Assembly (NCBI GenBank): GCA_964658305.1
Contig: OZ210885.1
Location: forward strand, 806,001-870,000
Length of the DNA: 64,000 nucleotides
Source of the DNA: Leptogorgia sarmentosa
Lineage: Eukaryota
Direction of reading: 5' to 3'
Shown: positions 9,617-60,783 of the stretch, piece after piece
How the letters are laid out: every line of letters begins with the position of its first letter
Position numbering within the stretch: the stretch's first letter is position 1
Position numbers and translations under genes: made by a program
The notes under the pieces: model-generated
Database searches by the model: none
What the model was told of the DNA's origin: nothing
The model's input: only the letters and a program-made list of their open reading frames with translations

Positions 9617-12600
9617 ATGTATGGTGCCAGTTCAAGCTTCAACCCATATCCTAAAATGGGTGGACACGCCCATGGAGGGCACGACCATGGGGGGCATGGC
9701 CACAGTCATGCCCCCGGAGAGGAATGTGGTATGCACGGTGGGGAGGGTGAGGATGCAAACTTCCCTTCCCCTGGACCCCAGAATAAACCAAAATCACCTG
9801 CACCCCCTCCACCCTCAAAACCAGACCCTGCATCAATGAATATTGTCCAGGCTGTCCAATATGGTGAAATGACAAAACTGAAGCAATTTGTTGAGAATGG
9901 TGCAGATGTGAGAACACCAGATGCAGAGAATGTGACTTTACTACATTGGGCTGCTATCAATAACAGAATTGAAATTGTCAAGTATGTATGACCACTTTAG
10001 GCTACTTTCTCTATTGATCCTTAAAAAGTGGAAACACTGGATTTAGTGTTTGAACAAATAAGTCTGTATTAGTGGCCACTTTAGGCAGTACTTTCTCTAT
10101 TGATCCTTATAAAGTGGAAGGACTGAATTTAGTCTTTGAAGAAATAAGTCTGTATTAATGGCCACTTTGGGCAGTACTTATTTCTGTATTGATCCTTAAA
10201 AAGTGGAAGGACTGGATTTAGTCTTTGAACAAATAAGTCTGTATTAATGGCCACTTTAGGCAGTACTTTCTGTATTGATACTTAAAAAGTGGAAGGACTG
10301 GAGTTAGTGTTTGAACAAATAAGTCTGTATTAATGACCACTTTAGGCTACTTTCTCTATTGATTCTTAAAAGGTGGAAGGACTGGATTTAGTGTTTGAAC
10401 AAATAAGTCTGTATTAATGACCACTTTAGGCTACTTTCTCTATTGATTCTTAAAAGGTGGAAGGACTGGATTTAGTCTTTGAAGAAATAAGTCTGTATTA
10501 ATGACCACTTTAGGCTACTTTCTCTATTGATACTTATAAAGTGGAAGGACTGGAGTTAGTCTTTGAACAAATAAGTCTGTATTAATGACCACTTTAGGCT
10601 ACTTTCTCTATTGATTCTTAAAAGGTGGAAGGACTGGATTTAGTCTTTGAAGAAATAAGTCTGTATTAATGACCACTTTAGGCTACTTTCTCTATTGATC
10701 CTTAAAATGTGGAAGGACTGGATTTAGTCTTTGAACAAATAAGTCTGTATTAATGGCCACTTTAGGCAGTACTTTCTCTATTGATACTTATAAAGTGGAA
10801 GGACTGAATTTAGTCTTTGAAGAAATAAGTCGGTATTAATGACCACTTTAGGCTACTTTCTCTATTGATCCTTAAAATGTGGAAGGACTGGATTTAGTCT
10901 TTGAACAAATAAGTCTGTATTAATGGCCACTTTAGGCAGTACTTTCTGTATTGATACTTATAAAGTGGAAGGACCGGAGTTAGTCTTTGAACAAATAAGT
11001 CTGTATTAATGGCCACTTTAGGCAGCAGTCTCTAACCCTTTAATTAACTGACTAAGCACTGTGAAAATCTGGTTTGTACTAACCTTATAGTCAGCATCAG
11101 AAATACCAGTGCAACATTAACACTTGGTTTAAAAACGATCACGACAGACTACTGTGTCCTAGTGAACTGAATTAACCACACACTCACTTTTTAAGGACAG
11201 TGTATCAGTTTTTCAAGTGACAAAGTCCCTGCTGTAACCTTCGCTGCATTTTATATTATACTTACTTTTTAAAACACACGGGAAAGTGATTTATCCCATG
11301 TAAATGGTTTAAGAAACGACCCAACTTGTTTAATGTAAATTTCAACCAATTCTAAGCCGGGAAAAAACCATGACCAGCCGACAACAAAAATAAAGTAAAA
11401 AACAAATTCCGAAAAGACAGGACATCTTGAGAATTCAATATATAATTCAAAACAAGACGCAGTTTGAGACTGTAAATTTTCGACTTTATTTCAAAGTCAT
11501 CTTCAGACAGAATGAAATACAATACTTTACACATTCATTCTGTCTGAAGATGATTTGAAAAAAGTCGAAAATTTACAGTCTCAAACTGCGTCTTGTGTTT
11601 TGAATTATATATTGTATTCTCAAGATGTCTAAGCCGGGAAAACCAAAGCTACATAAAAAACGTGAAATGATCAAACGAGGCCAACATGTTGCATCTAACA
11701 ATGCTTCGGCTTTGTTTGAACAGCCTTTAACGAACGTGTTTCTTTTCCTCGAACAGGTTCCTTATCACGAGTGGTGCGATAGTCGAACAGAAAGGAGGGA
11801 ATTTGGAGGCAACTCCTCTCCACTGGGCTGTCAGGTAACGTGGCAACCAAGCAGCGGGCTTAGCTTGAGTATCAAGTACCCTGAATAGCCTCATTCATGC
11901 ACAATGAGCATTTAGTAGTAAAGTATAACGACCTCCTTAACGACCCAACGTAGTGATGACGCGTTATGTTACCATATTAATAGACTACTTACCTCGCCAT
12001 ATCGCTGGCTCAATACCACGAGAGCTCGGTTTAATATTTTCCCATGAATTCTTAACTCGCTCTCGCGTAAGTAGTTACAGTACATGCAATAATCACGTCC
12101 ACTGCGTTGAATTTCAGCCTGTTAATCACCTCCCTTTCCGCAACTAATTGTTGCACACTGTTAATCCTTAAGCACTGTGAAAATCTGGTTTGTACTAATC
12201 TCATGGTCAGCATCAGAAATACCAGTGCAACATTAACACTTGGTTTAAAAACGATCACGACAGACTACTGTGTCCTAGTGAACTGAATTAACCAGACAGT
12301 CGATTTAAAATATGACAAACACCTCATGCATGAAGTTTGCAAGAAAACTAGAAAAAACTAGGGCATGCAGCAAATGTGCCCAGTCGTGACAAGATTGTCT
12401 TGGATAAGAAAGACTGTCGTGGACAGGGAAGACATTTAAAGGGGGAATTTCAACTTGGAGTAAAGTGCCATAAAATCATATCCAGTTACCCTCAATTTAC
12501 ATGTATGGTAACAAATGTGTTTATATTTTATATAGACAAGGCTTACTAAACATGGTTGTTCTGCTTATGAAATATGGGGCTGATCCCAATTCAATGGATA

Positions 12601-15600
12601 TCGAAGGTAGGCCTAAATTATAATTTTTTTTTCACTTATGCCAGTTTCACTGCAATTTCTAGTCCGGTTTTCTCCTGTCCGATAATGAAGAACACGTTTA
12701 GGTTATTTTTTCGCTTGCAATGGACAATTCCCCAATCAAACAAAATTTTGAAATATGAGAATTCGTTGCTAATCATTATCATAGCTGGAAAGGGCATCCT
12801 ATAAATTTAGTAAAACTGTGGAGTTTGGTTGCAAAATATCGTAAACTTTGTAAAGTACAGGGACTTGGAGTTTGCGAATTTTGTAATTTATTACACTTTT
12901 TTATTACACACTAAAAAGCGTCCATTATTATTTACCCGCGAGTTGTATTTTATAATGTTCTCAAGCCATTACTTCATATACAGTTCTGACCTCAATACAC
13001 TCTAAATAATGACTGTCTTAATTTGGCATAATACTACGTACACATGCAGGGAACTTTAGATTTGCTATAAAAATCTATTACAGCCTTTTAATTCAGGATC
13101 TTTGCAATCGAAAGCGTTTTATCTTTTTTTTTTATCCGCACCACATCATTGTAAGAAACGTTTAAATAAACCATGTTTTAAGTATGAAAATATAATATTA
13201 AGATCGCAGCAGTTTTCGAAGATATACAGTATAGCAAGTCGAAGCTCCCCATTTTGACACGCAGGCCACAAGCCTGTTTCTAGCAGCTGTCAGTTTTAAC
13301 AATTCTTTTCTCTATAACAACATTTGCTGCGTAAAAATTTACAATTTGCATGAGAATCATATTTTTGTACATAGAACACTAGTTATATACTGGCAGTTGA
13401 CTCTACAAGATTATTTAAAAACGCATTTCACAACAATTTATTAAAACTACATATGTACATTGAATTTCAACATTGCACGGAAGAGTCGTATATATGTCGA
13501 AGTCTTATTATACTGACTCTACCGTGTTTGCAAGAATCTCTATTCCCATATACAGTATTATTGTACATTTTTCCTGCGCTCGTCTTTTCATTAACATCTT
13601 CGTCATTGTACCTGATCCCACGAGTCTTACTCGGTGAATATTTTAGCAGTTCGTATTGGAACCTTTTACACCAACATTATCCCGTTGTGGGAGTCCTCCC
13701 TTTCTTGAGAATTTTAAATGTTTCGTTGCGCAGTAATGGTCTGGTCCAGAAAAATATTATTGAGTTTAAACTTGAGTTTAAGTTCATAACTGCTCCTGCC
13801 CATGCCCTGAGCGCAAAGGAGTGTGCTTTATCAACAAAGGATACAGAGGCAAGTAAGCCGGTCCCTGCAAGAAAACAACCAAGAAAGCATCCCACAGCAA
13901 GAAAACAGGATTTCCCCTGTTGAATCTTCTTCAAAAACGAGCGTTCATTTTGGCCATTTGACGTGGAAATATCTCCAACATTCCCAGGGCCAGGGGGATT
14001 TAGATTTTTAATAGCGAGAAAAATCTTAGTGTACACAAATATTGCAATGAGTATAAAGAGCACCATGCAAATAATTAGAAAGCCTTCAAACAGTTGTCTT
14101 TGGAAAAATGTTAAGGCTATAATGATTATAACCATAAGCAAACATCCGCCAACCAAAAAGTGCGTGATTCTTCTTTTTGTCACCATATTACGATGTTTGA
14201 TGGGATGTACAATGCTCATGTATCGTTCAATACTCATTACTGTTAACGTTATTAAAGATATTAGAAATGGAAGAATCATTATATTTGCTATCAACCGCAG
14301 CGATAAGCAATTTGGAGAACCCAGCGCTTGACTGAAACAAAGATAGCTCAATGAAGGTAAACCGACGAATCCTACCGCTAAATCAGCCAGTGATTGAACC
14401 ATTATCAGGAAATAAGCGATCTTTTCTTTCAGTTGGGGGCATTTCATTATCGTGAAAACAGATATTCCATTGAGGAAAACCGTGGGTAGGATTAAAAACG
14501 TTGTAACTGAACAGGCGCTGATCATGTTGTTGAAATGTGCTTTGGATGGCATCTTTACCAAAATTTCATACCGTGAGTTCAACATAACGCACTGCTGGAA
14601 GAATTCTTCACTTGTGGCATTCATTGTTCCAAATCTTGATCTTCACAAAGTTAAATTACAATGACGAAAAGTCTACTATGTTCTTATCAACGAGAAACCT
14701 ATTGCTGTGTGATGCTGTTTGAACTGCCAAGGCTCTTAAACAGCCACGTAACTAATGGCTATGTATCTCATTCGCTGTTCCCAAGTATCAATATACGTTT
14801 ACATTGTGTGGGGAAAGTTATCAGACAAATTGTTGACCAATTAATTGGGCGTTTTTTAAAGCTTCACATTGCCAGCTGCAAACATGTTAAACTCCTTTTG
14901 ATCCGATAATAATTTATTTTAATCTCATTGTATTATCACTGAAAGGGCTTTTCGTTACGTGCGTTGATAAATTTTTTTCATTTACTTTCTTTATTTTTGA
15001 TCAAATCTGTTCACACACACGTCCAGTTTTCCCTGCTATGCCGAAAAAATTATATATAGTGCGCTGTATTAAATTGTATTCTTTAGCAATCGCCAATTTT
15101 CTCGGTGTCTTTCTTATTGCTATATAGATAAAAGATAATTACAGTACAACATAGACGAGGAGGCATAAAACCGGGGGGATAGGGGGAACATTATAATTTT
15201 CTTTCAATTCTGGTTTATTCTATAGGCCTCGTTTACATTGGGTTTACAGGACAGTGTCATTTTCCGTCTTGTCTGTTACGTCATATTTCTATTAGGATTT
15301 TGTGGCAATGCTACTTGACATTCATTCGATAACGCGCCCCAATATATATTTGCGCTTTTAAGAAATAACAGGTGTATGAATCACACAGACTAAACTGTTT
15401 CTATTGTGTTTTCTTGTGTCCATCAATATATATGCCTGAATATTGTTTTAAATTACAAAGTGGCCTCTGTTGATTTATCTCGAGACGTTTTGGATTCGTA
15501 AGTTTTTTCCCAACACTTCACCGCTATACCGAAAGGCAACGGCTTTTAATTTTAGGAAAAGAAAGCGTATTTCAAAACACACAAACCGCCTCGGCACCGT

Positions 15601-25005: not shown

Positions 25006-28000
25006 TTATCGAACCCACAAATTTAATGCGTATGATTTTTGCGCATTATCAACGTCTATTGAACCCTGTGCAGGCCCGTAACCAAAATCAAGAAAACCAA
25101 TAGTTCCACCAAACCGTGCTGCATCTTCCTCAGTTATTCCAATACCATGATCCGCTCTATTGCATACGCTTCCTCCTCCACCAATCATCATCACTGCACC
25201 ATCATAATACCAATCACACCAAAATCCAATTTCGTTACTGCTCTGAATATCACTGCTACATCCATACATTTCAAATCCCGACGTGTTCTGATACTGTCCA
25301 CCATAATTGACATCACAACTACCAAGACACTTATCATCTGCCCACACAGCTCGGTTACGAAAGTCTCCAAAAGATGTGATAAATTGACGAAATGTTTTTC
25401 CTTTGAGGCAATTACTGGTGGTTTGCAACAACGCTGTGTGGGAGGGATCGTCGCTTCTCGTAATTTTCAGCTCATTTGCTTGTGTTTTCCAGAACGCTTC
25501 AGCAATCATGTCATGATTAGATGAAGGATCAAATGTTGAACCGTAATTGGACATTCTGTCAAACCAAAAGCTGGCATTTGTCATCCAATTTTTACCATCT
25601 ATGTTAGAAAAACGAGCAACGAGAGTCCACGCTGAAGGCATCTCGCAATACGCCTAATACAAGAGAAAAATATAGAATTAATAATTAATAATACATAAGC
25701 TTTTTGTCATTTTCTTATCATCCTTGATTCAATAATGATTAAATAATTAAATGATTCAATTAACATTCATTATTCCTTTTACATAACACCAGAAAAAGAA
25801 CTGGTTTCAACTACTGATTTCGCAATACAAACATGGATGCTCGGCTGAGTGGAACGCCTTCCATTTCACGACCGTGAAATTTAACAATTTCTGATGGTGG
25901 TTTATACACAAAAATTGAAATGAGTGGAAATAAATTTTAATTATCAACTAAAACTACAGTAACTATTTTCGTTTCATTTGATCATTGAGTTTGAATAAAT
26001 AATTTTTTTATTATAAATTACACCTGCAAAATTTGTCACCACAACGAATTCTTATGCCCAAAACATTCTTCTACCAAAATATGAATAAATGAGCAATATT
26101 CATGAAAGTAATTATCTCAAATATTTTTATTTAATTTTTTATACGTGTATGTACGTGTACTTTTTCATAAAATATGTGTAGTTTACCTTCCAAGATCCGA
26201 TGGAATGTACTCCACTGGAAAGTTGCGGTTCTTCTAGTGATTTGCAGTTGTAGATACCTGAATTAATTAAAAGGAGAAATTTCACTGCTGCTATTTGCGC
26301 CAGCCTGGTGGGTACAAGTTCCGCACGGCTAACGAAGTCGGATGGAAGTTAATCCGCCGCCATTTCGGGTCATGGAACTGTTCTTGTGGCGAGATATTTT
26401 CCGATTATAATACCGAAAATTTAATTCTATATAGCTACTGAACTCTCTAAACATGTCGTAACAGGTCTATAGAAACTGAACATAACGACCTGATTTTGGA
26501 TAAATATTGGAGTAACATTAATATCACAATTGGAATTGCGCACCAGAGTCCCGTTGAAATGAATTCCCACTACCAGCCGTTTACGCTTGCATGCAAACCC
26601 CTCAACAATTACCGGGGCAGAGAAAGTCAAACATTGTTTGTTGTTTGGACGGACGTCCTGCTCCATATCCTGGAACTCTACAACTACAATTGCCACCGTT
26701 ATATCAAACACGAAACTCGCGTCTTCCACCAAACTATCTATTTCTCCGCAGTTCTGATGTTACGTACCTTCGCAAAGCTTGCCGAAGGAACTCTCTGGGC
26801 ATTTACATTTGAAAGGCTCATTTGGATCCCAAATCATAGTTCCACCATTTTTACACTGATTGTCTTCTTCACATCCAAACTAAAGTATTTGAAGAATTTA
26901 TTACATTATTATCATTTATAGACACGAAGCGAGGGCTATTCATCGAAATATTTCCGGAAGTGATGAAGTGAAGAATACTTCATATTTCGAGAATATAATT
27001 GGCTTAGTTGCGTTGTTTGTTAGTAAGGCAAGGAGTGCATGCCATGAATGTATCTTTAGTAGCTAAAAGTTCTGCTACAAAAGGGGTGGAGTTATAACTC
27101 CGGAAATCTTATAGAGTATTTTCCAGTCATTCTTACCATTCTGTCTTCAACGCCTTGATAAAATGACCAATCATTATCTTCGCTGCTCACTTTTAGGAAT
27201 TCATGATTGGAATCGTGGCTTATCTGGCAGTTGATGTCGTTTTTCTTTGAGTTTTTGTTGTAATTGAAGCCGGTACAGAATTGTGTATCCAAACAACTCA
27301 TGCCACAGTCCAACCAACTGGACACTTTTGATTCAAACATGATATTCTTTTCCAGGCGTGAAATACCTAGAAATTTAGGCAAATGTTTTCGCATAATTTA
27401 GCACGTCTCTGGTTTTTAAGTCCAGCAGCGGGGTTTAATGTCGATTTCAATGGAATATAAGTCAGAAAATAAAATGTTAAACATTAGGACATGCGTCGGG
27501 TCCAATGTCTTTTGCTGACATGCAATATAATTACGTTATTTTATTCTTGTACTGGTTATGACACTTATACGACCTGTTTTGCGATGATATTAATAACTGT
27601 ATATTTTGAAGCTACAGTAAATTGCCAGTCCCACTAGTAAAGTTACAAAGAGAAAACAAAACACGAAGTGTTAATTATACGTGGTTTTAATAACTTACTT
27701 TGACGCGTGCTCCTAAAATGTTTATTTTTTTAGCGTAGTTGGGAAGACTTGCTATTATTACTACTACTTATTATCAATCCTAACCACGGTACATACGTGT
27801 ACAAAAATAATTACACCGCCTGCGCCCGCAGCAGCAGCGGAGTCTTAAATTTGTCGACAGTGTCACAAATCGGCAACCCTGTATACGTTTCTGGATAATG
27901 TGACGTTGGAACCTTTGATAACTTTTAATATGTCGTGATGAGAGTTTGACCATTTTACTTTTGGTGCATTTATACAAGCCTTTTTACACGTGTTATCCAA

Positions 28001-30783: not shown

Positions 30784-33700
30784 TTATCGAACCCACAAAT
30801 TTAAAGCGTATGATTTCTGGATTTCTCCTAGGTAATCATATCCAAAATCAAAAAAATAATAAGGTCCACCAAATCGTCCTGCATTTTGTTCGGTTATTCC
30901 AATGCCATGATCCGCTCTACCGCATTCGCTTCCTCCTCCACCAATCATCATCACTGCGCCATCACCATCACTCCAATCACACCAAAATCCAATTTTGTTA
31001 CTGCTCTGAATGTCACTGCTACATCCATACATTTCAAATCCCGACGTGTTCTGATACTGTCCACCATATTTGACATCACAACTACCAAGACACTGGTCAC
31101 TTGCCCACACAGCTCGGTTACGAAAGTTTCCAAAAGATGTGACAAATTCACGAAATGTTTTTCCTTTGAGGCAATTGCTGGTAGTTTCCAACAACGCTGA
31201 ATGAGAGGGATCGTCGCTTCTCGTAATTTTCAATTCATTTGCTTGTGTTTTCCAGAAAGCTTCAGAAATCATGTCATGATTAGATGAAGGATCAAATGTT
31301 GAACCGTAATTGGACATTCTGTCAAACCAAAAGTTGGCATTTGTCATCCAATTTTTTCCATCTTCGTTAGAAAAACGAGAAACTAGAGTCCACGCTGAAG
31401 GCATCTCGCAATACACCTAATACAAGAGAAAAATACATAATAATATTAATAGATTATTAAGTCGTGTAATTATAGTAAAATATTCCCTGGTGAAGGACGG
31501 GATATTTCATTTAACAAGGCAACAGCCGAGTTATCAATACCGCTGCGGAATCCGTACCCACGCCGTTTTGCATGCTCATTGAGATCGAGGTTCAAATTCT
31601 ATCGCGCAAACATTCTTTCACGTAAAAATGTGAAAAAATTGGACAATTCCGAAAGCGGAATATGTTAGTTTACAATTTTGAAAGCGTTTTTATAAAATAT
31701 GTTAGTTTACCTTCAAAGACCCGAAGGAATATACTCCACTGAAAAGTTGCAATTCATCTTGAGGTAGTGATTTACAGTCTGGTTTGGGCGTGTCTAAATC
31801 ATTTAACACACATACAGTCAATTTATTCTAACTAATTAATGTTGCTCTACACCTCAACAATTACCGGGGCAGAGAAAGTCAAACATTGTTTGATGTTTTT
31901 GGACATTCCTGCTGCATTCCTGAAACTCTACAACTACAATTGCCACCGTTATATCAAACACGAAATTATTCACGTCTTCCACCAAACTATCTATTTCTCC
32001 GCAGTTCTGATGTTACGTACCTTCGCAAAGCTTGCCGAAGGAATTCTCTGAGCATTTACATTTGAAAGGCTCATTTGGATCCCAAATCATAGTTCCACCA
32101 TTCTTACACTGATTTTCTTCTTCACATCCAAACTTAAGTATTTGAGAGTTTATTATATGACACATTATGTGAGCACAATGAAGAATTTTTGAAGATGAAA
32201 CGCGACTACACTTTTATACGCATGCATGTATTGTTACAGATTGAACCCGTTTATTTCACAAAAGATCCTATGTCCGTGAGCCTTTGCGATTGATTACATG
32301 CTTTTCAACAGTACAGATTCAAGAGGCGAATAATAGTAGTATATTGGGAATGAAATCAAGGTCACTCTTGGAGTCACTTGAATAAAGATCCAAAAAATCG
32401 ACAAGTTTCGAATTCAGCAAGATGATCATTTTGTAATTAGATTTCTAGCTGTATCTAATACAAAAACTCTGTATGTATTGTAAAGGGCAAAACGAATCTT
32501 CTGGAATCTTCACATTCTAGTGTTATGACAATATACGTCTTCCACAGCTTCGTGGACGAGAACCGGCACAAAATCTGGTGACAATAGCGACTATAAAAGT
32601 TATATATACTGCGCCACAATCGTCACCGCCTTGAACCGTTTCCGGCAATCTAGAGTATTTTCCAATAATTCTTACCATTCTATCTCCATTGCCTTGATAA
32701 AATGACCAGTCATTATCTTCGCTGCTCACTTTTAGAAATTCATGATAAGAATCGTGGCTTATCTGGCAGTTGATGTCGTTTTTCTTTGAGTTTTTGTTGT
32801 AATTGAAGCCGGTACAGAATTGTGTATCCAAACAACTCATGCCACAGTCCAACCAACTCGACACTTTTGATTCAAACATGATATTCTTTTCCAGGCGTGA
32901 AATACCTAGAAATCAAATGTCAATGTTCAATCTTTTGCATGTTTGTATCTTGGTTTTGAAAGCGCCTTTTCCACTTGCCCGTTTTTAGTACTTTGCGATT
33001 TTTTATGCGCTAGCTAACATGGAAGAGTGCTTTTTTCCCTTTCGCATGAACAAATTTGCGAAGTGGACTGAAACAGGATTAAGCTAGAAAATTTTGTTGA
33101 TGAATCTAAAACGCTCTCTGACCAAATATTAAATTTTATTTATGAGCTTTCGGTCACCAGTCTGTAACCTTCAACGGATAGTTGCATATTCCCGATAGAT
33201 TTGTCATCTATCCGTTGAAGGTTACAGACTGGTAACCGAAAACTCATAAATAAAATTTAATATTTGGTCAGAGAGCCTTTTAGATTCTTCACTATGTTTA
33301 ATCCTGGCCGCGCATCTTCTATTTTTTGTTAGAAAATTTTGGACACCACAAGAGCAATTATTCAAAAGCAGGAATGCAAATCTTCCCTATAGATAAAAAA
33401 TCTAAACAAGATGCAGTATATTGAAATATTTATAACACTTTTAAGTTTTAATTTCAAGTTTTCCTCAAGAATAATTTTTTGTAAGGATAGAATATATGTA
33501 GCTATTTGTAAATAAATTAGCTACAGACACAGATGAAATATTATTCCCCGTTAAATTATTATTATTAGCTCTCTTATTACTGTAGTCTATATATAAGTTC
33601 TGTAAAAAGTGTGTATGAGAGAAGAAGTCGAGTCTTTCAGTTTGTTAAAAACTATTTCGGAATACTAGTTGTGCGTGGCCAAATTCACGCATTGTAGTTA

Positions 33701-36995: not shown

Positions 36996-39900
36996 TTATC
37001 GAACCCACAAATTTAATGCGTATGATTTTTGCGCATTATCAACGTCTATTGAACCCTGTGCAGGCCCGTAACCAAAATCAAGAAAACCAATAGTTCCACC
37101 AAACCGTGCAGCATCTTCCTCAGTTATTCCAATACCATGATCCGCTCTATTGCATACGCTTCCTCCTCCACCAATCATCATCACTGCACCATCATAATAC
37201 CAATCACACCAAAATCCAATTTTGTTACTGCTCTGAATATCACTGCTACATTTATACTTTTCAAATCCCGACGTGCTCTGATATTGTCCACCATATTTGA
37301 CATCACAACTCCCAAGACACTTATCACTTGCCCACACAGTCTGGTTACGAAAGTCTCCAAAAGATGTGATAAATTCACGAAATGTTTTTCCTTTGAGACA
37401 ATTACTGGTGGTTTCCAACAACGCTGTATGAGAGGGATCGTCGCTTCTCGTAATTTTTAATTCACTTGCTGGTGTTTTCCAGAACGCTTCAGCAATCATG
37501 TCATGATTAGATGAAGGATCAAATGTTGAACCGTAATTGGACATTCTGTCAAACCAAAAGCTGGCATTTGTCATCCAATTTCTTCCATCTTTGTTAGAAA
37601 AACGAGCAACAAGTGTCCACGCTGAAGGCATATCGCAATACATCTAATAAAATTAAGAGAAAATAGAGAATTTAGAATTAATAATACATAAGCTTTTTGT
37701 CATTTTCTAATTATCCTTGATTCAATAATGATTAAATTAATTAAAGAATGATTCAATTACAATCATTCATTATTTGTTTTATATAACACCAGAAAAAGAA
37801 CTGGTTACAAAACAAACATGTATGCACGGCTGATCGCGGAGAGTGGAACGACTTCCATTTCACGATTTTTGACGGTGTTTTTATACACAAAATTGAAATA
37901 AGTGGAAATAAATTTTAGATTAAATGACAACTAGTATTTCCGTTTCATTTGATCATTGAGTTTAAACAAATTACATCTGCAAAACTTGTCACGACAACAA
38001 ATTCTTTTGCCAAAAACATTCATCTACGAATAAATTGAGCAATATTCATGAATAAATTGAGCAATATTCATGAAAGTAATTATCTCAAAGATCCGTTCCT
38101 AATTTTTTATACGTGTATGTATGTGTACTTTTTCATATAATATATTGTGTAGTTTACCTTCCAAGATCCGACGGAATGTACTCCACTGGAAAGTTGCGGT
38201 TCTTGAACTAGTAATTTGCAGTCTGGTTTGTAAATGCCTGAATTAATTAAAAGGACAAATTTCACTGTTGCGGTTCTAACATCATATGCGCCAGCCACGA
38301 GGGAAGGGCCATTAGGACGTAGCCCAGGCGTGGGTACTAGTTCCGCACGGCTAACGAAGTCTGATCGAAGTTAATCCGCCGCCGTTTCGGATCATGGAAC
38401 TGTTCTTGTGGCGAAATATTTCCCGATTATTATGCCGAAAATTTAATTCTATATAGCTACTGAACTCTCTAAACATATCGTAACAGGTTTATAGAAACTG
38501 AACATAACGACCTGATTTTGGATAAATATTGGAGTAACATTAATATCACAATTGGAATTGCGCAACAGAGTCCCGTTGAAATGAATTCCCACAACCAGCC
38601 GTTCACGCTTGCATGCAAACCCCTCAAAAATTACCGAGGCAGAGAACGTCAAACATTGTTTGTTGTTTGGACGGACGTCCTGCTCCATGTCTGGAAACTC
38701 TACAACTACAAATGCCACCGTTATATCAAACACGAAATTCACGTCTTCCACCAAACTACGTATTTCTCCGCAGTTCTGATGTTACGTACCTTCGCAAAGC
38801 TTGCCGAAGAAATTCTCTGGGCATTTACATTTGAAAGGCTCATTTGGATCCCAAATCATAGTTCCACCATTCTTACACTGATTTTCTTCTTCACATCCAA
38901 ACTAAAGTATTTGAAGAATTTATTTCATTATTATCATTTATAGACACGAAGCGAGGACTATTCATCGAAATATTTCCGGAAGTGATGAAGTGATGTTTCG
39001 AGATTATAATTGGCTTAGTTGCGTTGTTTCTTCGTAAGGCAAGGAGTGCATGAATGTATCTTTAGTAGCTAAAAGTTATGCTACATACTATCTAAAATCT
39101 TCAAAAGTCGTGGAGTTATAATTCCGGAAATCTAGCGAGTATTTTCCAATAATTCTTACCATTCTATCTCCATTGCCTTGATAAAATGACCAATCATTAT
39201 CTTCGCTGCTCACTTTTAGGAATTCATGATTGGAATCGTGGCTTATCTGGCAGTTGATGTCGTTTTTCTTTGAGTTTTTGTTGTAATTGAAGCCGGTACA
39301 GAATTGTGTATCCAAACAACTCATGCCACAGTCCAACCAACTCGAAACTTTTGATTCAAACATGATATTCTTTTCCAGACGTGAAATACCTAAAAAGTAA
39401 ACAGCAGTCCAGTCGGCAAATGTTTTCACAATAATTTTACACGTCTTCGGTTGTTTAGTCCAGCAGCGGGGTTCAAAGTCGATTTCATCTGGTCTTATAT
39501 CTATTGCTGCCAGTATAATTATGTTATTTTATTTTTCTACTGGTTACTACATGACTCTCATAATTGTACGTGGTTTTGACTTAATTTGATGCGTGCTCTT
39601 AAAATGTTTAATATTTTAGCGTAGTTGGGAGTAGATATTAATAATAATTATTATCATTACATTAATAATTTTGCTTATTTATCCTAACCACGGTAAATAA
39701 CGCATCGAACCAGGATTGAACGTACGCACGCACTCTACACGCACTACTGACGGAACCAATGACGGTTGAGCATTTAATTTGTTAAAAGTTGAATCTAATG
39801 TCAAATGTCGTGAGAAGATTCTTTGCTGGTGTTGGTGTTATGCTATACATTATTGGTCACATATTGAAGTTTGATTTTGCTAAATAGCCCCTGCTGAATA

Positions 39901-40733: not shown

Positions 40734-41715
40734 CTTCTTCCTTAGGAACACTCTGCTGCGTTAGTTGATCCACCTGTGTTTTTATTTGACCTCTTTGCTG
40801 CCAATGACCACACGCATGCGTTGAGCTACTGGAGCATCTGATTGGTTCATTTGTACAGTCCACTTTCAACCACCTGCTCTATGTTTCCGTCGTGTTGCAC
40901 ATTTTCCTTGTCGAAGGAAAATAAACTAACCAAAATAAAAGTAGACCAATCTACTGAATATAGCCATTGATATATAATTTATAAATATAATTATTATAAT
41001 AGGTTATTGTATTGGATCGAAACACGTTGTCGTTATCATTACACCAACTGATGTTTGATTAAGCTATATTTACTACTTTTATAGCGTGCATATTTCGAAA
41101 ATACATCGCAATCATCATTATAGTACGAATTTCGCCCGGCTATTTACACCAAGGAAAGCAAAGCATTCAACATTCATTGCTGCCGCTGTGACAATAATTA
41201 TTCATGTAAATGAACTTTATTTAAGAAGTTCACAACAATACGACCGATATCGATCAAACGTCAATTATTACATATTAATTATATTATTACATGATTAAAC
41301 GTCATTACATATGAATAAAACCGATTGGAAATGTAATGTCCATTGCTGGAAGAAAATGTATATAAATTGTAGCTGCACAGAGGCTGAGTTAACTGTGGAT
41401 AAACGCACGTAAACATTTGACATAACATATAGACAGGTGTAAAAGAGCAAATAATTAAATGGCATAAAATTGTCAGAAATTTGAAATTAATGGATTGTTT
41501 ACGCGTGCACGGTAAAAATAGAAACCCTCAGTATACAAGACTAGTGTCCTAAGCACAATTTACGCGCATTTAAGTGGAAAATTTCCAATAGATTATATGT
41601 CTTGTATATTAAATTATCTTCATTCATTTCTTCCCCAAAATAAATATAGTAGTTAATTTAATTAATATGGCAATTGAATACAATTGTCAGCTGAGATGTA
41701 TTGAGTTTGCTGTAA

Positions 41716-42222
41716 GGAGGTGTTTATCTGGAGGCGAGCCAGCCCGAGTACCCGAGTCAGCCCGCGCTTAGCCCAGCTGAATGATTTTCATCTCGTATTT
41801 GCATGAGACTTTTGAGGCGGAAATAATTCCTTACGAACGTGAAATGCACACTTCTGAAAGTCACTTTCACAGTTATAACTCACAGAACCGTTTCCTGAGA
41901 CCTTTTAAGATTGAATATATCGGTAAAACATATAATTCGTAGCAGTATATTCGCGCAAAAAGCGAAATAACAGCCAGCCCGCCACTTAGGCGAGTAAGCC
42001 CGGCTAATTGCGTTTATACGGAAGTTTCCAGCCCGCCTAGGCGGCATCCCGCTTCGGCAAAGCGAGATCTCGCCTTGGCGGGCCAGCCCGGTTCCCATAT
42101 AAACGCAAGATGAATATTACAATAAAATAATTAATTATATTGTGACATTAGATCTCACTGCATGTGAGCGAGCCAATCCGGGTGTCCAGGGTACCGTAGC
42201 TCGCCTTCATATAAACACCCCC
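41716..42222. mobile_element. PIF/Harbinger-type MITE
   Basis: TAA-GGAGGTGTTTAT...ATAAACACCCCC-TAA. Confidence 0.85.
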
Positions 42223-42578
42223 TAAAATCACTTGTCTATTCATGATAGTCACGATAATCCTTCACTAGCCTTTCCTAACGAAACTAACGGACGTTTTACC
42301 CCACTGCTCTACACTTATCAATAGATTACAGTCATCTTTTTAATTCAAGCAACACCTGACATACTATTCCGCTTTGCACTAGCAGGTTATTAATATCAAA
42401 GGACGAGTAATGGGTATATAAAATGAATAACCAACACACTAGTATTTGTTAACAAAGTTTATTTCTAAAAGCAGAACACAAATGTGTACAGCTATATCAA
42501 CTACATCTTGTATTTAAAGTGAATTTTGTGTTGTCCAATATCGTAATTATTCTATGTTGTTTCATGATGCTACATCGT

Positions 42579-44863
42579 TTAGTATCCGTAGAGGTTACAC
42601 TAGACAATAAAAAAGGCAAATAATTAGTCCCAAAGGCCAAGCCATGCGAGTTAGATGCAAGAAGCAAAATTCATCTCGTCATTAAACTCCGGTTCTATTA
42701 CATGCAAGAATTGAGGAACGAAGGGCGTCATGGGAAACGCCAAATTCTAGCCCGAATCATCTCGTCATTAAAGCCATCCGTAAATTCAAGTTTACAAAAA
42801 TGGTTCAAAGGCACTTGTTTGTAATCTTGAATCTTGATTCAAAGTTTTGTCATATAAGACAAATCGTCAAGTTTTGAGATGATGTTAAAAATCAGATGGC
42901 ATGCAATTAAGCCTCAGCTATCAACTTTAGTATACACCCAACCATCGTCTATTACAAATGCCACATTCTGATTGGCTACTCAGCCTTCTGGGCATAGAGT
43001 GTATACTAAAACAATTAGACAACTCGGCCTCCTTGTCTATGAGCGAATAGTCAACTCGGCCTCGTTGTCTAATTGTTAAATGGTCCAAATGTGAGTTGAG
43101 TAAATTTTCGCTTACCGTTCGCTTGCAAGGTCCGGGTTTGCAGATTTTGCCGCAAATGTAAGACTGGGTGCGACACCTGGTGCAGAGGTTGGTCACTATC
43201 TTGCAGACAAGGACCTTTCTTGGAACTTTCTTTGTCTTCCACACGAAACGGGGTCCGTATCCTGGGTAGTAAGCCAGATAGTGTTTGTATCTGACGATTC
43301 TGTATCTGATCACAGTGTTACAAACACGTTTGGTACATTTAACTTTTCTGCAAACACGTCGGGTACATCTTCTGGGTCGGCAAATCGGTACGCATCCACA
43401 GGCCCTACACCAAAGTTTTCCTTTCCTGTAACGCCTGCATGGCGCCAAACCTAAAATAATCAAACCACATCGGGAAATGTTAAAATCTAGCTTGGGTCGA
43501 ACAGTTACGGGAGTTGTTAGGTTTTCTGGAGAACATGACATCATAGGACATGGCTTTGAAGTAATTGATGGAGCTGACCTCGTTTCTCTGGCTCATCATC
43601 AGCGACATCTGTGGTTTCTTCTAAAAAGGCAAGAGAAAAGCGCAAATCAAAACTGGGAACAAATTTTTTGGTGCGATTGAAGGCACCACAGCTTTGAGAG
43701 CGGCAAAATTGATTTGCTTTGGAATTACTAGTGTACTGCTCTACAGGGTGTAAAAAAAAACGCAGCCTCGTGGATAATTATGCATTCGATGAAATTTTAA
43801 TTCTCAGTAATGTAATTATTATTCATATTAGTTTGATTTTACGCCTCTGGAATTTCATATTTTGTGTACAGTATAAGTAAAAGCAAAACAGGACAAATTA
43901 AGTACTGTGATACAACAACGCGGTTCCATTCTTTTGGGGCACACCCTGTATATAAAGGCCTGTTTACACCGGCAATTTTTGCTTCGATTTTGGAAGCGAT
44001 GTTCTCCTTTTGAACGACGTGAAAGAGTAGATTACTTATTAAAGTTGTTGTGAGATTTCATAACTTGGAACGTTTATAAATTATCAACTCCTTCACATCG
44101 TTCAAAAGGAGAAAATCGCACCTAAAATCGCAGAAAAAATCGACGATATAAACGGGGCTTAAGAAGGGGGGTGCCGGGTGGCCATATTTGCTTCGATCAA
44201 CTCCTTCAGTCATTACCTTCATCTTCTTCATCAGCTTCTTCGTCTTCGCTTTCATCTTCATCCTCGGCAGTCTCGTCTTCCTCAGCCTCGGGTTGTTCAT
44301 CGTTCACGTCAGCAGTCTCTGGTTGGTCGGCCATCTTGGGCGCGTCGACCGCGGGGGTCTCGTCATCGGCACGAGCAACTTTTGTTTGGAAAAAGAAAAA
44401 CTTGGATTTATTTGCAATCCTTCTCAGTCCAGATACTCGCCCGAATGTTTATCATTTCGCCAACAAAAGAAAGATTTTTGTGGCAAGTCTCAATTTTAAT
44501 TATGCAAGCATGCCAAGCAATATATATGACATTTTATGGAGTAAATTCGACCGCGTCATTTCAGAAATGTAACCAATTTCAAACGCTTTCAGTGAAAAGT
44601 ACATAAAAATACGACAAGTATTTTTCCTAAACAATGGACACTACAAGATTGTAATGAAATTAAACTCAGCTAAAATATGTTTTAAAATCGTTTGGTTTTA
44701 AATCTTTTTGGAGGCCGCATGTCGGAGGTTGATTGCATGCTCGCTCAGGCTTGCCCACTGTTACGAGAAGGCAACACTTAATGAAGTTCTGACACCACAA
44801 TCACTTACCAAACACACAGGCCGAAGCCACCAAAAGGAAACACAACAGTGCAAAACTCTTCAT
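42579..44863 (-). CDS. Secreted prepropeptide, 204 aa: signal peptide, acidic propeptide, KR site, cationic 16-Cys mature peptide. Exons 44863-44809, 44378-44217, 43620-43579, 43450-43116, 42599-42579
   Basis: Canonical GT-AG sites and phases 1,1,1,0 give MKSFALLCFLLVASACVFVARA-DDETPAV...DDEPEKR-GLAPCRRYRKG...CKRTCNLYGY*. A TATA box lies upstream and AATAAA at 42463-42458. Confidence 0.9.
43744..43948. mobile_element. Tc1/mariner-type MITE in intron 2 of the peptide gene
   Basis: TA-CAGGGTGT...ACACCCTG-TA. Confidence 0.8.
43956..44160. mobile_element. PIF/Harbinger-like MITE (a degenerate relative lies near 59125-59285)
   Basis: taa-aggcctgtttac...gattttgg / ctaaaatcg...ataaacggggct-taa, imperfect TIRs. 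Confidence 0.6.
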
Positions 44864-44939: not shown

Positions 44940-44946
44940 TTTTATA
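44940..44946 (-). promoter_or_regulatory. TATA box of the peptide precursor gene
   Basis: The minus strand reads gggTATAAAAgggg, about 77 nt upstream of the ATG. Confidence 0.75.
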
Positions 44947-58348: not shown

Positions 58349-60783
58349 ATGGCAGTACGATTACTTCGAATGCAAAATGTGACACACGTTGCTTCAAGAG
58401 TCATGTTTAATCGTATATCCTCGAAATATGTGCATATGGGTGAATATTTTAGTCAAGGACATCCAAATGAAATTGAGCTTCAGGCCGTAGTGCCTTTGGC
58501 TGGAAGAAAACATTTGGTTGGTTCTAACTCAGCTGGCTTTCCCAAACATTTGTCAGGGCCTAAAGAAGATTTTCCAATGCTGGTGAAAGCGAAGAACGGG
58601 CAAGAAGCAAGTATGAAACACTGGGCATTGAGATGTAGAGAGATTATTGATCAAGCATATCAAAGGTATTTATTACGTAAAACAATGCGAATGTTTGTAT
58701 GGCTCCAATTCCAGCGTGTTCAGCTTCCAGTTGGATTTGTTCGGCCATACAAGCGCATCACCAAGTTTGTAATATATGAACTGAAATGTAACAACGATAT
58801 TCACACCAAATTTTGATAGAAATAATTTATATTTTATTCATAATGTTAGACGTGTTATTGTGTTGTTGCCTGCAGCGCTGCGAAGCGGAATAATCACATT
58901 GCTTGGCATGCATTTGACCTTTGCGGCTTACATATATTTAATTTCCAGCCTCTTGCAATGATTAGCAGGGACTTTCGATCCAATGAAAGCGACCTTTGCT
59001 TTTTACATTTGAGAATAATATGGAATTACAACTAAAGTAGTCTTTGGTGTCTCCTAGTTTTCACTCTCTATGATAAAATTCACCCACAGTAGTTGCCAGA
59101 TAATTGAAGAATTTTCTGGCACCTTTAAAGCTCGTTAACGTTTAGACGAGCGATTTCTGGTGCAATTTTCTCCTTTTGACGGATGTGAACGAGTGAACCA
59201 GTCACGAATGTTCATACTCAGCACATTGGTTATTAATTCGCTTTTTCACATCTATCAAAAGCAGCAAACGTGTGAACTGGGCTTATGTTAACGGTTTTGC
59301 GAAGCATTGCATGAATGATGCATGCACAAACATGTGCAAGCTTTTGAGATTGCTGACTGGTCAGGCCTTTCATAGGACGAAAGCAGGTGATGCTTGAGAA
59401 CTTTAGTGAAATGACAGGTTGAGGTTTTTAATTTATTCGAGTAACTTTTCATTGCATGTGAATGGAAGTGAACAGGTTTCGAAGAAGTGGGAGAACGTCA
59501 GACTTTGTCGCGAACATGTTGGACAGATAGCTTTTCCTTTTTTTGAAAATTTATCATTCAAAATTAGATGTCATAATTTGTAGTGAATTGATAGTAATAA
59601 AAGTAAATTTTAATTCATACTGGATAAATCAATTAGCAATAATAATTTAACATTTTGAAAGGTATGAGAAAGATGGCAGCGCTGTAGCTATATTGTTCCG
59701 TGGTTTACCGAATTTGGATGAAAAGGACTTTGCAGCATGGGTCAACAATTTGGGTTTTAAACCATTCCCGTACGTTGGTGGAATATCTCCAAGACATGAA
59801 ATACAACCGAATGTTGCGGAAGGCGCACATGATGACAATGTGTTCACCATTGAACCACATAATGAAATGGCGTACGCTGCTAAATATCCAAAGGTATTTG
59901 ATATAAAATATCTTTAGATAAGGAAGTATAAACAGACGAAGCCCTAGTGAAGACATGTTAGGTCGTAAATACTTTTCAACTGAATTTGGAATCATTCCAG
60001 CCAGGGTAACAAATAAAATCGGGAAATATTCTTCACATATAGGTTGCGAGCCATATGTGTAGATTAAATCTGTTTGTATTGTTTAATATGGGTAGCGAGC
60101 AGAGCTTTTGCTTCCTGTTCATATTCTTACTTATTGACCTTAATATTGAATTTCAGATATTCACTATCAGCTGTTTAAAGAAATCTCAATGGGGCGGTGA
60201 GACAGCAATTTGTGACAATCGAGACATCCATATGAAGTTAGACCCAGCATTTGTGCAAAAATGTGAGGAGAAGAAAATTCGTTATTGGAATTGTCTGCAC
60301 AGTGAGGATAGTGAGAAAAATCTTTATCAAAGTTGGCAAATGCGTTTTAAAACAGAGGATAAGAGTGAAGTTAACGAGTTTTTAGAAATTGAAAAGTATA
60401 GTTATATTTGGGAAGAAAATACTTTGTTTTACTGGAAAGATTTATCGCCCACTACAACACATATTATTAGCGGGGAGCAGCTGTGGTTCAATCATTTAAC
60501 CTGCTCACACTGGAGTTATTTTGAGCACATTCCACGCTACGAAGACCACAAATTGAACTACAAAGAGTATCCATGCCATACGACTTATGGTGATGGTGAA
60601 GAATTTGAAAAGCATGAGATTGATGAGCATCGACGTTGTATTTGGGAAAGTGCTGTTGGATTTGACTGGCAAAATGGTGATATATTGTTTTTAGATCAAA
60701 TGATTGTTCAGCATTCCAGGTTAAGTTTCGAAGGGGATAGAAAAGTTGGTGTAAGTCTCATGGATTTTTTAAACAAAATTTAA
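58349..60783 (+). CDS. TauD/TfdA-family Fe(II)/2-oxoglutarate dioxygenase (DdaC/SyrP/clavaminate synthase-like group), 391 aa. Exons 58349-58665, 59662-59893, 60157-60783
   Basis: AILFRGLP, IEPHNEMAY (HxE), WGGETAICD, LWFNH, TYGDGEE, WQNGDILFLDQMIVQHSRLSFEGDRKV. The Arg-rich, acid-free N-terminus resembles a mitochondrial transit peptide. Confidence 0.92.

Follow-up and report, generated by a model that had tools for sequence, protein, structure and literature searches.

Our results show that Leptogorgia sarmentosa expresses a five-exon gene whose 204-residue product belongs to an apparently undescribed octocoral peptide family, in which a strongly acidic propeptide precedes a cationic, cysteine-rich part of almost equal and opposite charge that is predicted to fold as a long, disulfide-laddered beta-hairpin. 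We hypothesize that the mature peptide is a secreted host-defence effector that binds polyanions and acts on microbes, a reading to which we give about an even chance. The gene lies on the minus strand of the 64,000-nucleotide stretch of DNA that was analysed (the window), and a precursor of this kind had been proposed in an initial annotation made from the sequence alone.

All four introns (4/4) are of the GT-AG type, with phases 1, 1, 1 and 0, and the features of the gene and its flanks are collected in Table 1. The spliced transcript that the initial annotation had anticipated is present, as the contigs of runs X4 (779 nt) and X6 (734 nt) join 4/4 junctions exactly and that of X5, which stops short of exon 1, joins 3/4, with no cover of the unique intron parts by the spliced contigs of the three runs. 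The gene is thus expressed; X4 to X6 belong to one study whose library type is not on record, and we read them as RNA because their contigs are spliced. The DNA-like run X1 covers the introns with 0/4 junction joints, and the DNA-like run X2 covers intron 3 with no joint over the stretch compared, i.e., exons 3-4 with one intron (of six runs that contain the stretch, X4, X5, X6 and X1 were compared over the whole gene, and X4, X5, X6 and X2 over exons 3-4). The spliced contigs extend the 5' UTR to at least 44893 and place the end of the 3' UTR at about 42445.

Table 1. Features of the precursor gene and its flanking signals, in positions of the window.
Feature	Position	Strand	Basis or remark
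TATA-like box	44940..44946	-	about 47 nt upstream of the spliced-contig 5' end (44893); putative promoter role
Coding exon 1: start codon and 18 residues of the predicted signal peptide	44809..44863	-	joined to exon 2 in X4 and X6
Exon 2: signal peptide end with its A-x-A motif (up to 44368), then the bulk of the acidic propeptide	44217..44378	-	gene model, spliced contigs
Exon 3: end of the acidic propeptide and Lys-Arg site (43585-43580)	43579..43620	-	gene model, spliced contigs
Exon 4: mature residues 2-112, 15/16 Cys; predicted long beta-hairpin ladder	43116..43450	-	gene model, contigs, AlphaFold2, family alignment
Internal 18-nt direct repeat in exon 4, 30 nt apart (10-codon unit), 89% identity	43321..43368	-	repeat scan
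Coding exon 5: final six residues (C113 among them) and stop codon	42579..42599	-	gene model, spliced contigs
AATAAA polyadenylation signal	42458..42463	-	13 nt upstream of the X4 contig end

The exon differences listed within the species are all synonymous (7/7; a further one in exon 4 of the X6 contig is outside this list), and this small set looks, weakly, like purifying selection rather than an arms race. A chance ORF or a pseudogene is ruled out by the splicing, the synonymous-only variants and the conserved homologs, and the antisense ORFs at 43104-43454 and 44126-44606 were discarded as shadows of the coding strand. A scan of all 64,000 nt for Cys and basic residues found no second gene copy in the window; at 80% likeness to exons 3-4 there was one contig per spliced run, which points weakly to a single copy. 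The 30-nt spacing of the repeat in exon 4 equals the 10-residue Cys period of strand 1, and this suggests duplication of a 10-residue unit as a route of ladder growth.

Introns 2 and 4 hold inverted repeats (43942-44173, 105-nt arms, 76%; 42926-43081, 31-nt arms, 81%), both with very high summed depth in X1 and likely high-copy and MITE-like, and a further likely MITE-like element with 32-nt inverted arms 459 nt apart lies just downstream of the gene (41708-42230). Elsewhere in the window, three tandem Trp/Cys/Gly-rich exons of about 200 residues (25006-25653, 30784-31416 and 36996-37643, minus strand; no Pfam family in the 2/3 scanned) and neighbouring PAN-domain exons (32523-32912 and 39088-39528; one scanned, PAN_1 E 2e-05) make up a duplicated cluster of secreted-type genes. 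A single-exon rhodopsin-family GPCR gene (13677-14642, minus strand; 7tm_1 E 7.8e-14) apparently lies nested within an ankyrin-repeat gene of the opposite (plus) strand whose start is near 9617, and an ORF for a TauD/TfdA-family dioxygenase occupies 60043-60783 (plus strand; E 9.7e-13).

The precursor consists of a 22-residue predicted signal peptide (hydrophobic and ending in A-x-A, after which we infer cleavage), a 64-residue propeptide and a 118-residue mature part. The propeptide holds 34 Asp/Glu and one further Glu whose codon is split by intron 2 (35) and three Lys/Arg, ends in Lys-Arg and has a net charge of -32, and the mature part, net +33, has 33 Lys/Arg, no Asp/Glu and 16 Cys at positions 5, 15, 18, 20, 24, 29, 34, 39, 44, 83, 90, 93, 100, 104, 109 and 113. 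These counts and positions, first given in the initial annotation, were reproduced from the five-exon model, and the proposed layout of signal, acidic propeptide, Lys-Arg and cationic Cys-rich part is also kept in the full-length homologs. The almost 1:1 match between the charges of propeptide and mature part was borne out as well, and the balance recurs in four homologs (propeptide/mature net charge -37/+38 in P0003, -40/+37 in P0014, -37/+37 in P0023 and -26/+25 in P0017). The two charges correlate over the five precursors (r = 0.95, n = 5, two of them near-identical and both charges scaling with length), a set from which P0022 (an isoform of P0014), P0024 (a cluster-mate of P0017) and P0030 (partial) were left out. 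In these sequences the charge balance is conserved, and the correlation is suggestive rather than a co-evolution test. The C-terminal residue is Gly in P0003, P0014 and P0023, a possible site of C-terminal amidation, and Tyr in this protein and P0017.

Single-sequence searches matched P0001, the P0002 cluster and P0003; P0001 is 99% identical, an unspliced ORF call and likely from the same species. When 1.84 billion representatives were searched with a profile, 13 matched, all with E below 1e-10 and none weaker, and a deeper profile added four further members, among 13 matches from 315 candidates. The named members come from the octocorals Paramuricea clavata (CAB4007075.1, CAB4016147.1) and Dendronephthya gigantea (XP_028412270.1, XP_028412269.1, XP_028407356.1), both Malacalcyonacea, and two loci in each of them make this a multigene family. 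Among named records the homology search proposed at the outset leads to octocorals only, and from these records we infer that the family is restricted to them. Two paralog pairs, P0026 with P0035 and P0033 with P0027, lie on equal-sized longest contigs (908,192 and 55,708), which suggests tandem copies elsewhere, and a metagenome DNA scan gave 194 pattern matches with 0 confirmed relatives. XP_028412270.1 (P0014) is labelled a RING1a E3 ubiquitin ligase in RefSeq; this Dendronephthya member has no RING match in Pfam and carries a signal-like N-terminus and an acidic propeptide, so the database label is corrected here.

The full-length members keep the signal, the acidic propeptide (48-78 residues, this gene included) and the Lys-Arg, which ends the propeptide in 5/5 homolog records, and contain 14-16 Cys; the 14 of P0017 lie seven on each side of the core. 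The signal exon is 67-89% identical to that of four homologs. With P0017 it shares 89% identity, compared with 33% for the non-Cys mature residues, and with the other three 67-78%, compared with 49-53%. Exon 3 is matched in 12-13/13 residues in the Paramuricea and Dendronephthya homologs and in 7/11 in P0017. The usual pattern in families of antimicrobial peptides (AMPs) and toxins is a conserved signal, a fixed Cys frame and variable loops. Exons 2 and 4 matched no Pfam family, and in 4/4 full-length homologs no match passed the cut-off; neither ShK nor another family was matched by exon 4, P0003 or P0017, and P0014 and P0023 had only a sub-cutoff low-complexity match. No description of the family was found in the literature, searched also by six member accessions or locus ids (0 papers), with subscription journals mostly outside coverage, which agrees with the initial annotation having recognised no family.

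Seven Cys pairs have position sums of 127-129, the mirror symmetry described in the initial annotation, and seven pairs are rarely reached by chance (3/1000 uniform shuffles; 18/1000 with both Cys blocks kept). AlphaFold2 modelled exon 4 (3 sequences) as one hairpin, E26-56/E67-97, with block pLDDT of 75-94 over residues 31-90 and pTM 0.35, and the complete Paramuricea mature peptide (15 sequences) as strands E4-9, E12-25, E31-57, E68-94 and E101-113 with mean pLDDT 74.6 and pTM 0.32; pTM is low in both models, and the output is one of strand bounds without disulfide distances. In Paramuricea numbering, the registers that agree with these bounds have 43-82 and 33-92 opposed in the core and 14-112, 19-107 and 23-103 in an outer segment, and they set 4-17 in a small hairpin at the N-terminus; the pair 38-89 misses its register by two residues, and 28-99 falls in the hinge. 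In the mature numbering of this gene's product, the predicted structure is a two-segment hairpin with core strands of about 33-59 and 70-96, outer strands of about 14-27 and 102-114, and the small N-terminal hairpin, and by rough arithmetic (about 92 + 48 angstrom) the ribbon would measure roughly 14 nm if extended. It probably has eight disulfides, i.e., the seven rungs 44-83, 39-90, 34-93, 29-100, 24-104, 20-109 and 15-113 plus C5-C18. The about seven cross-strand disulfides first proposed thus survive as the rungs of a probable total of eight, and of the two residues then offered as partner of C109, C20 is retained and C18 is likely paired with C5. The tight YYPG64YG turn has to be given up, as the models close the hairpin with a variable loop of about 10 residues, whose length differs freely across the family (9-17 residues between anchors), and the stretch between C44 and C83 does not show the clean basic/hydrophobic alternation ascribed to it.

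The family alignment bears on the same ladder. All 15 Cys columns are kept in nine of 15 aligned rows; the other six lose a Cys, and 5/6 of these lose a predicted pair. C24 and C104 are lost together in P0011, as are C5 and C18 in P0015, P0017 and P0018, and P0016 is without C5 and has one Cys for 15/18. Exceptions are P0019, which loses C100 alone and keeps C29, and, outside the 15-row alignment, P0020 and P0028, which keep C44 and have Trp at C83. The core strands have a common length in 13 of 19 rows, are two residues shorter on both strands in P0014, P0023 and P0019 and two longer on both in P0018 and P0029, giving matched indels in 5/19 rows by anchors picked after the alignment was seen; they represent two or three events on the tree (the place of P0019 is unsure). 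P0009 was mis-anchored by the pattern used to set the anchors, though it aligns without a gap. In the alignment, Cys losses in pairs and indels of equal size on both strands show that the register has been selected over its full length. In the C44:C83 register, 13 rows chosen to thin near-duplicates, which are still related, contain 4/130 basic-basic cross-strand pairs (shuffle mean 16.9) and 71/130 basic-hydrophobic pairs (shuffle mean 43.8); a register offset by +4 has equally few basic-basic pairs (4), and this gene's sequence taken alone gives no significance (P = 0.41).

The long antiparallel ribbon with nested Cys pairs is accordingly upheld as a prediction by the two AlphaFold2 models, each with a long two-stranded ribbon as the initial annotation had expected, and by the paired losses and matched indels. 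A sequence search of the PDB gave 0 matches and a second search one, ribosomal eL42 (E 0.052), which we read as compositional. Foldseek against the PDB returned 0 matches at E <= 0.001 for both models, and the best VIA-align scores over 48,161 chains were Z 3.2 (rmsd 6.8, 45 aligned) and 3.0 (rmsd 4.3, 42 aligned), blanks that show neither a new fold nor a difference from known folds. The ESM Atlas had no usable match for P0003.

Over 19 rows, the two faces of the core carry on average 4.2 and 4.7 Lys/Arg and 4.7 and 6.6 hydrophobic residues of 12, with mean hydropathy of -0.84 and -0.23. In the modelled ribbon both faces would be mixed basic/hydrophobic and neither would face lipid. This favours a polyanion binder that uses both sides over a transmembrane hairpin, and the amphipathic transmembrane reading was rejected. 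Protegrins and theta-defensins are cationic hairpins with cross-strand disulfides; the peptide can no longer be seen as a scaled-up protegrin- or tachyplesin-like hairpin, because its mixed faces make it not amphipathic.

As a host-defence effector, the peptide would travel the secretory pathway shielded by its acidic propeptide, acting as a counter-polyanion chaperone, and after secretion of the precursor a convertase would cut at the Lys-Arg and release it. The freed peptide would fold as the predicted long disulfide-stapled beta-ribbon, and this rigid ribbon would bind along polyanionic surfaces, i.e., LPS, teichoic acids and anionic lipids, and cross-link them, so that microbial cells may be clumped or carpeted without amphipathic transmembrane insertion. 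We expect it to lie along polyanions rather than to insert because both faces pair Lys/Arg with hydrophobic or aromatic partners. In marine AMP precursors anionic prodomains neutralise the cationic mature peptides, according to passages of a review (PMC10608444). Divergent paralogs with a fixed signal seem to fit defence families better than a matrix role. Against the defence reading stand a mature part several times the size of hairpin AMPs and without a hydrophobic face, and the acidic-pro/Lys-Arg layout that sea-anemone toxins share in the cited part of PMC3447340.

The same ribbon might instead serve the coral itself, and we regard such a matrix role as unlikely: the polycation would condense or cross-link the coral's own polyanions (mucus, cuticle, mesoglea, egg coat or cnidocyst contents), maybe into sheets or fibres, with the propeptide blocking premature assembly. 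A cross-linker would be well served by two equivalent mixed faces and two free sheet edges, and the listed variants are synonymous in 7/7 cases. Anderluh et al. (2000) reportedly, by their title, found that toxins and nematocyst collagens share a propart motif, which we count for this role, and octocoral skeletal matrices hold small basic secreted proteins in the passages cited (PMC3365975, PMC7853314). The divergent paralogs with their fixed signal stand against it, fitting defence families better.

Use as a venom or anti-predator cytolysin of cnidocytes or gland cells, with long hairpins that assemble as oligomers into a beta-barrel or lyse animal cells in some other way, strikes us as improbable. 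The propeptide ends in an acidic stretch and Lys-Arg like sea-anemone toxin proparts (PMC3447340, in the part cited), and this end is the best-conserved part among the close homologs (12-13/13). However, KR-ending proparts also occur in toxins outside nematocysts, and toxin proparts have 9-17 residues against 64 here, according to the same source (PMC3447340). The best, weak structural matches are beta-barrel pore stems (3j9c: E 0.017, TM-score 0.26, rmsd 8.8, 74 columns), but they fall short of significance and reflect no more than the presence of a long hairpin, and neither face is lipid-compatible at the above hydropathy (-0.84, -0.23) and Lys/Arg content (4.2, 4.7 of 12).

Equally doubtful, in our estimate, is a self-assembling covalent beta-sheet tube or net held by inter-subunit disulfides, for which the propeptide would be a stoichiometric polyanion mould until Lys-Arg cleavage triggers assembly. 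C39/C90 and C29/C100 are shifted by two residues from the register that C44-C83 and C34-C93 define, and the Cys spacing of strand 1 is an odd number, so that alternate Cys might face the strand of a neighbouring molecule, each hairpin being sheared by two residues as in closed beta-barrels. The block of about 14 nm would be kept soluble and assemble on a microbial or matrix surface after the cut. Intramolecular diagonal disulfides would meet the Cys offset equally well. Least probable of all is a polyprotein whose 118-residue part is cut at internal dibasic sites into short cationic peptides, the ladder being a storage form: exon 4 does have nine dibasic sites and one RxxR-type site, but dibasic pairs are expected at 28% Lys/Arg, the RxxR site is absent from most homologs, and the full-length register is under selection, as the Cys losses in pairs and the indels matched between strands show.

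If our predictions are right, the peptide is a natural two-stranded ribbon of about 100 residues that seven to eight disulfides hold together without a hydrophobic core. Its length would be several times that of the hairpin peptides reviewed, and it would be a model both for the limits of cystine ladder extension and for an unstructured acidic propeptide tuned one-to-one to the charge of its cargo. Should the tube or net be real, octocorals would possess extracellular nanofibre or nanonet proteins of a new, disulfide-laddered class. The reviews consulted name one octocoral antimicrobial peptide, Pd-AMP1, and the family adds to it an expressed and directly testable candidate effector. Pd-AMP1 is also secreted and is called a beta-hairpin AMP, but in the description cited it has 5.4 kDa and, by eye, an unrelated N-terminal sequence, so it is not our peptide. 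Neither is scleritin, likewise secreted, basic and from octocorals: C. rubrum CR_1, read as scleritin from its length (155 aa; for scleritin 135 aa are described beyond the signal), contains few Cys, lacks an acidic propeptide and shows no similarity by eye.

Among the other cnidarian systems, the coral peptides damicornin and AmAMP1 are secreted, cationic and Cys-containing, but they have six Cys and are ShK-related, compared with 14-16 Cys here. The damicornin precursor is said to have an acidic proregion and a dibasic site. Hydra periculin-1 likewise joins an anionic N-terminal to a cationic Cys-rich C-terminal region (PMC11767717, PMC12466427, in the passages cited), but it has eight Cys, is hydrozoan rather than octocoral and is likened here by description, not sequence; no periculin is named among the 13 profile matches. 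The precursors of sea-anemone toxins share a signal, an acidic propart, Lys-Arg and a Cys-rich mature part, with the signal and the end of the propart conserved and the mature part variable, but according to the cited part of PMC3447340 the propart has 9-17 residues, against 48-78 matched in charge to the mature part in our family, and the toxins have a compact fold in place of the extended ribbon predicted here. To beta-barrel pore-forming toxins there are only weak long-hairpin structural matches, and their lipid-facing hydrophobic alternation is absent.

The marine beta-hairpin AMPs, i.e., tachyplesins, polyphemusins, arenicins and capitellacin, are cationic antiparallel hairpins made from precursors, with cation/aromatic cross-strand pairs and cross-strand disulfides of the kind predicted here; they measure about 2.5 kDa with 1-2 disulfides in the passages cited (PMC10608444), against 118 residues, 16 Cys and eight predicted disulfides in our peptide. 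Their propart is BRICHOS or a short pro-piece rather than a polyacidic stretch of 64 residues, their amphipathic non-polar face is missing here, and no sequence relation to them was found. Defining features of each group are absent from our family (size and amphipathy of the beta-hairpin AMPs, the six ShK-like Cys of damicornin and AmAMP1, the eight Cys of periculin, and those of Pd-AMP1 and scleritin), a separation that is drawn partly from descriptions. By analogy, the gene product would work like a prepro cationic Cys-rich defence peptide, in which a known precursor logic serves an extreme predicted scaffold.
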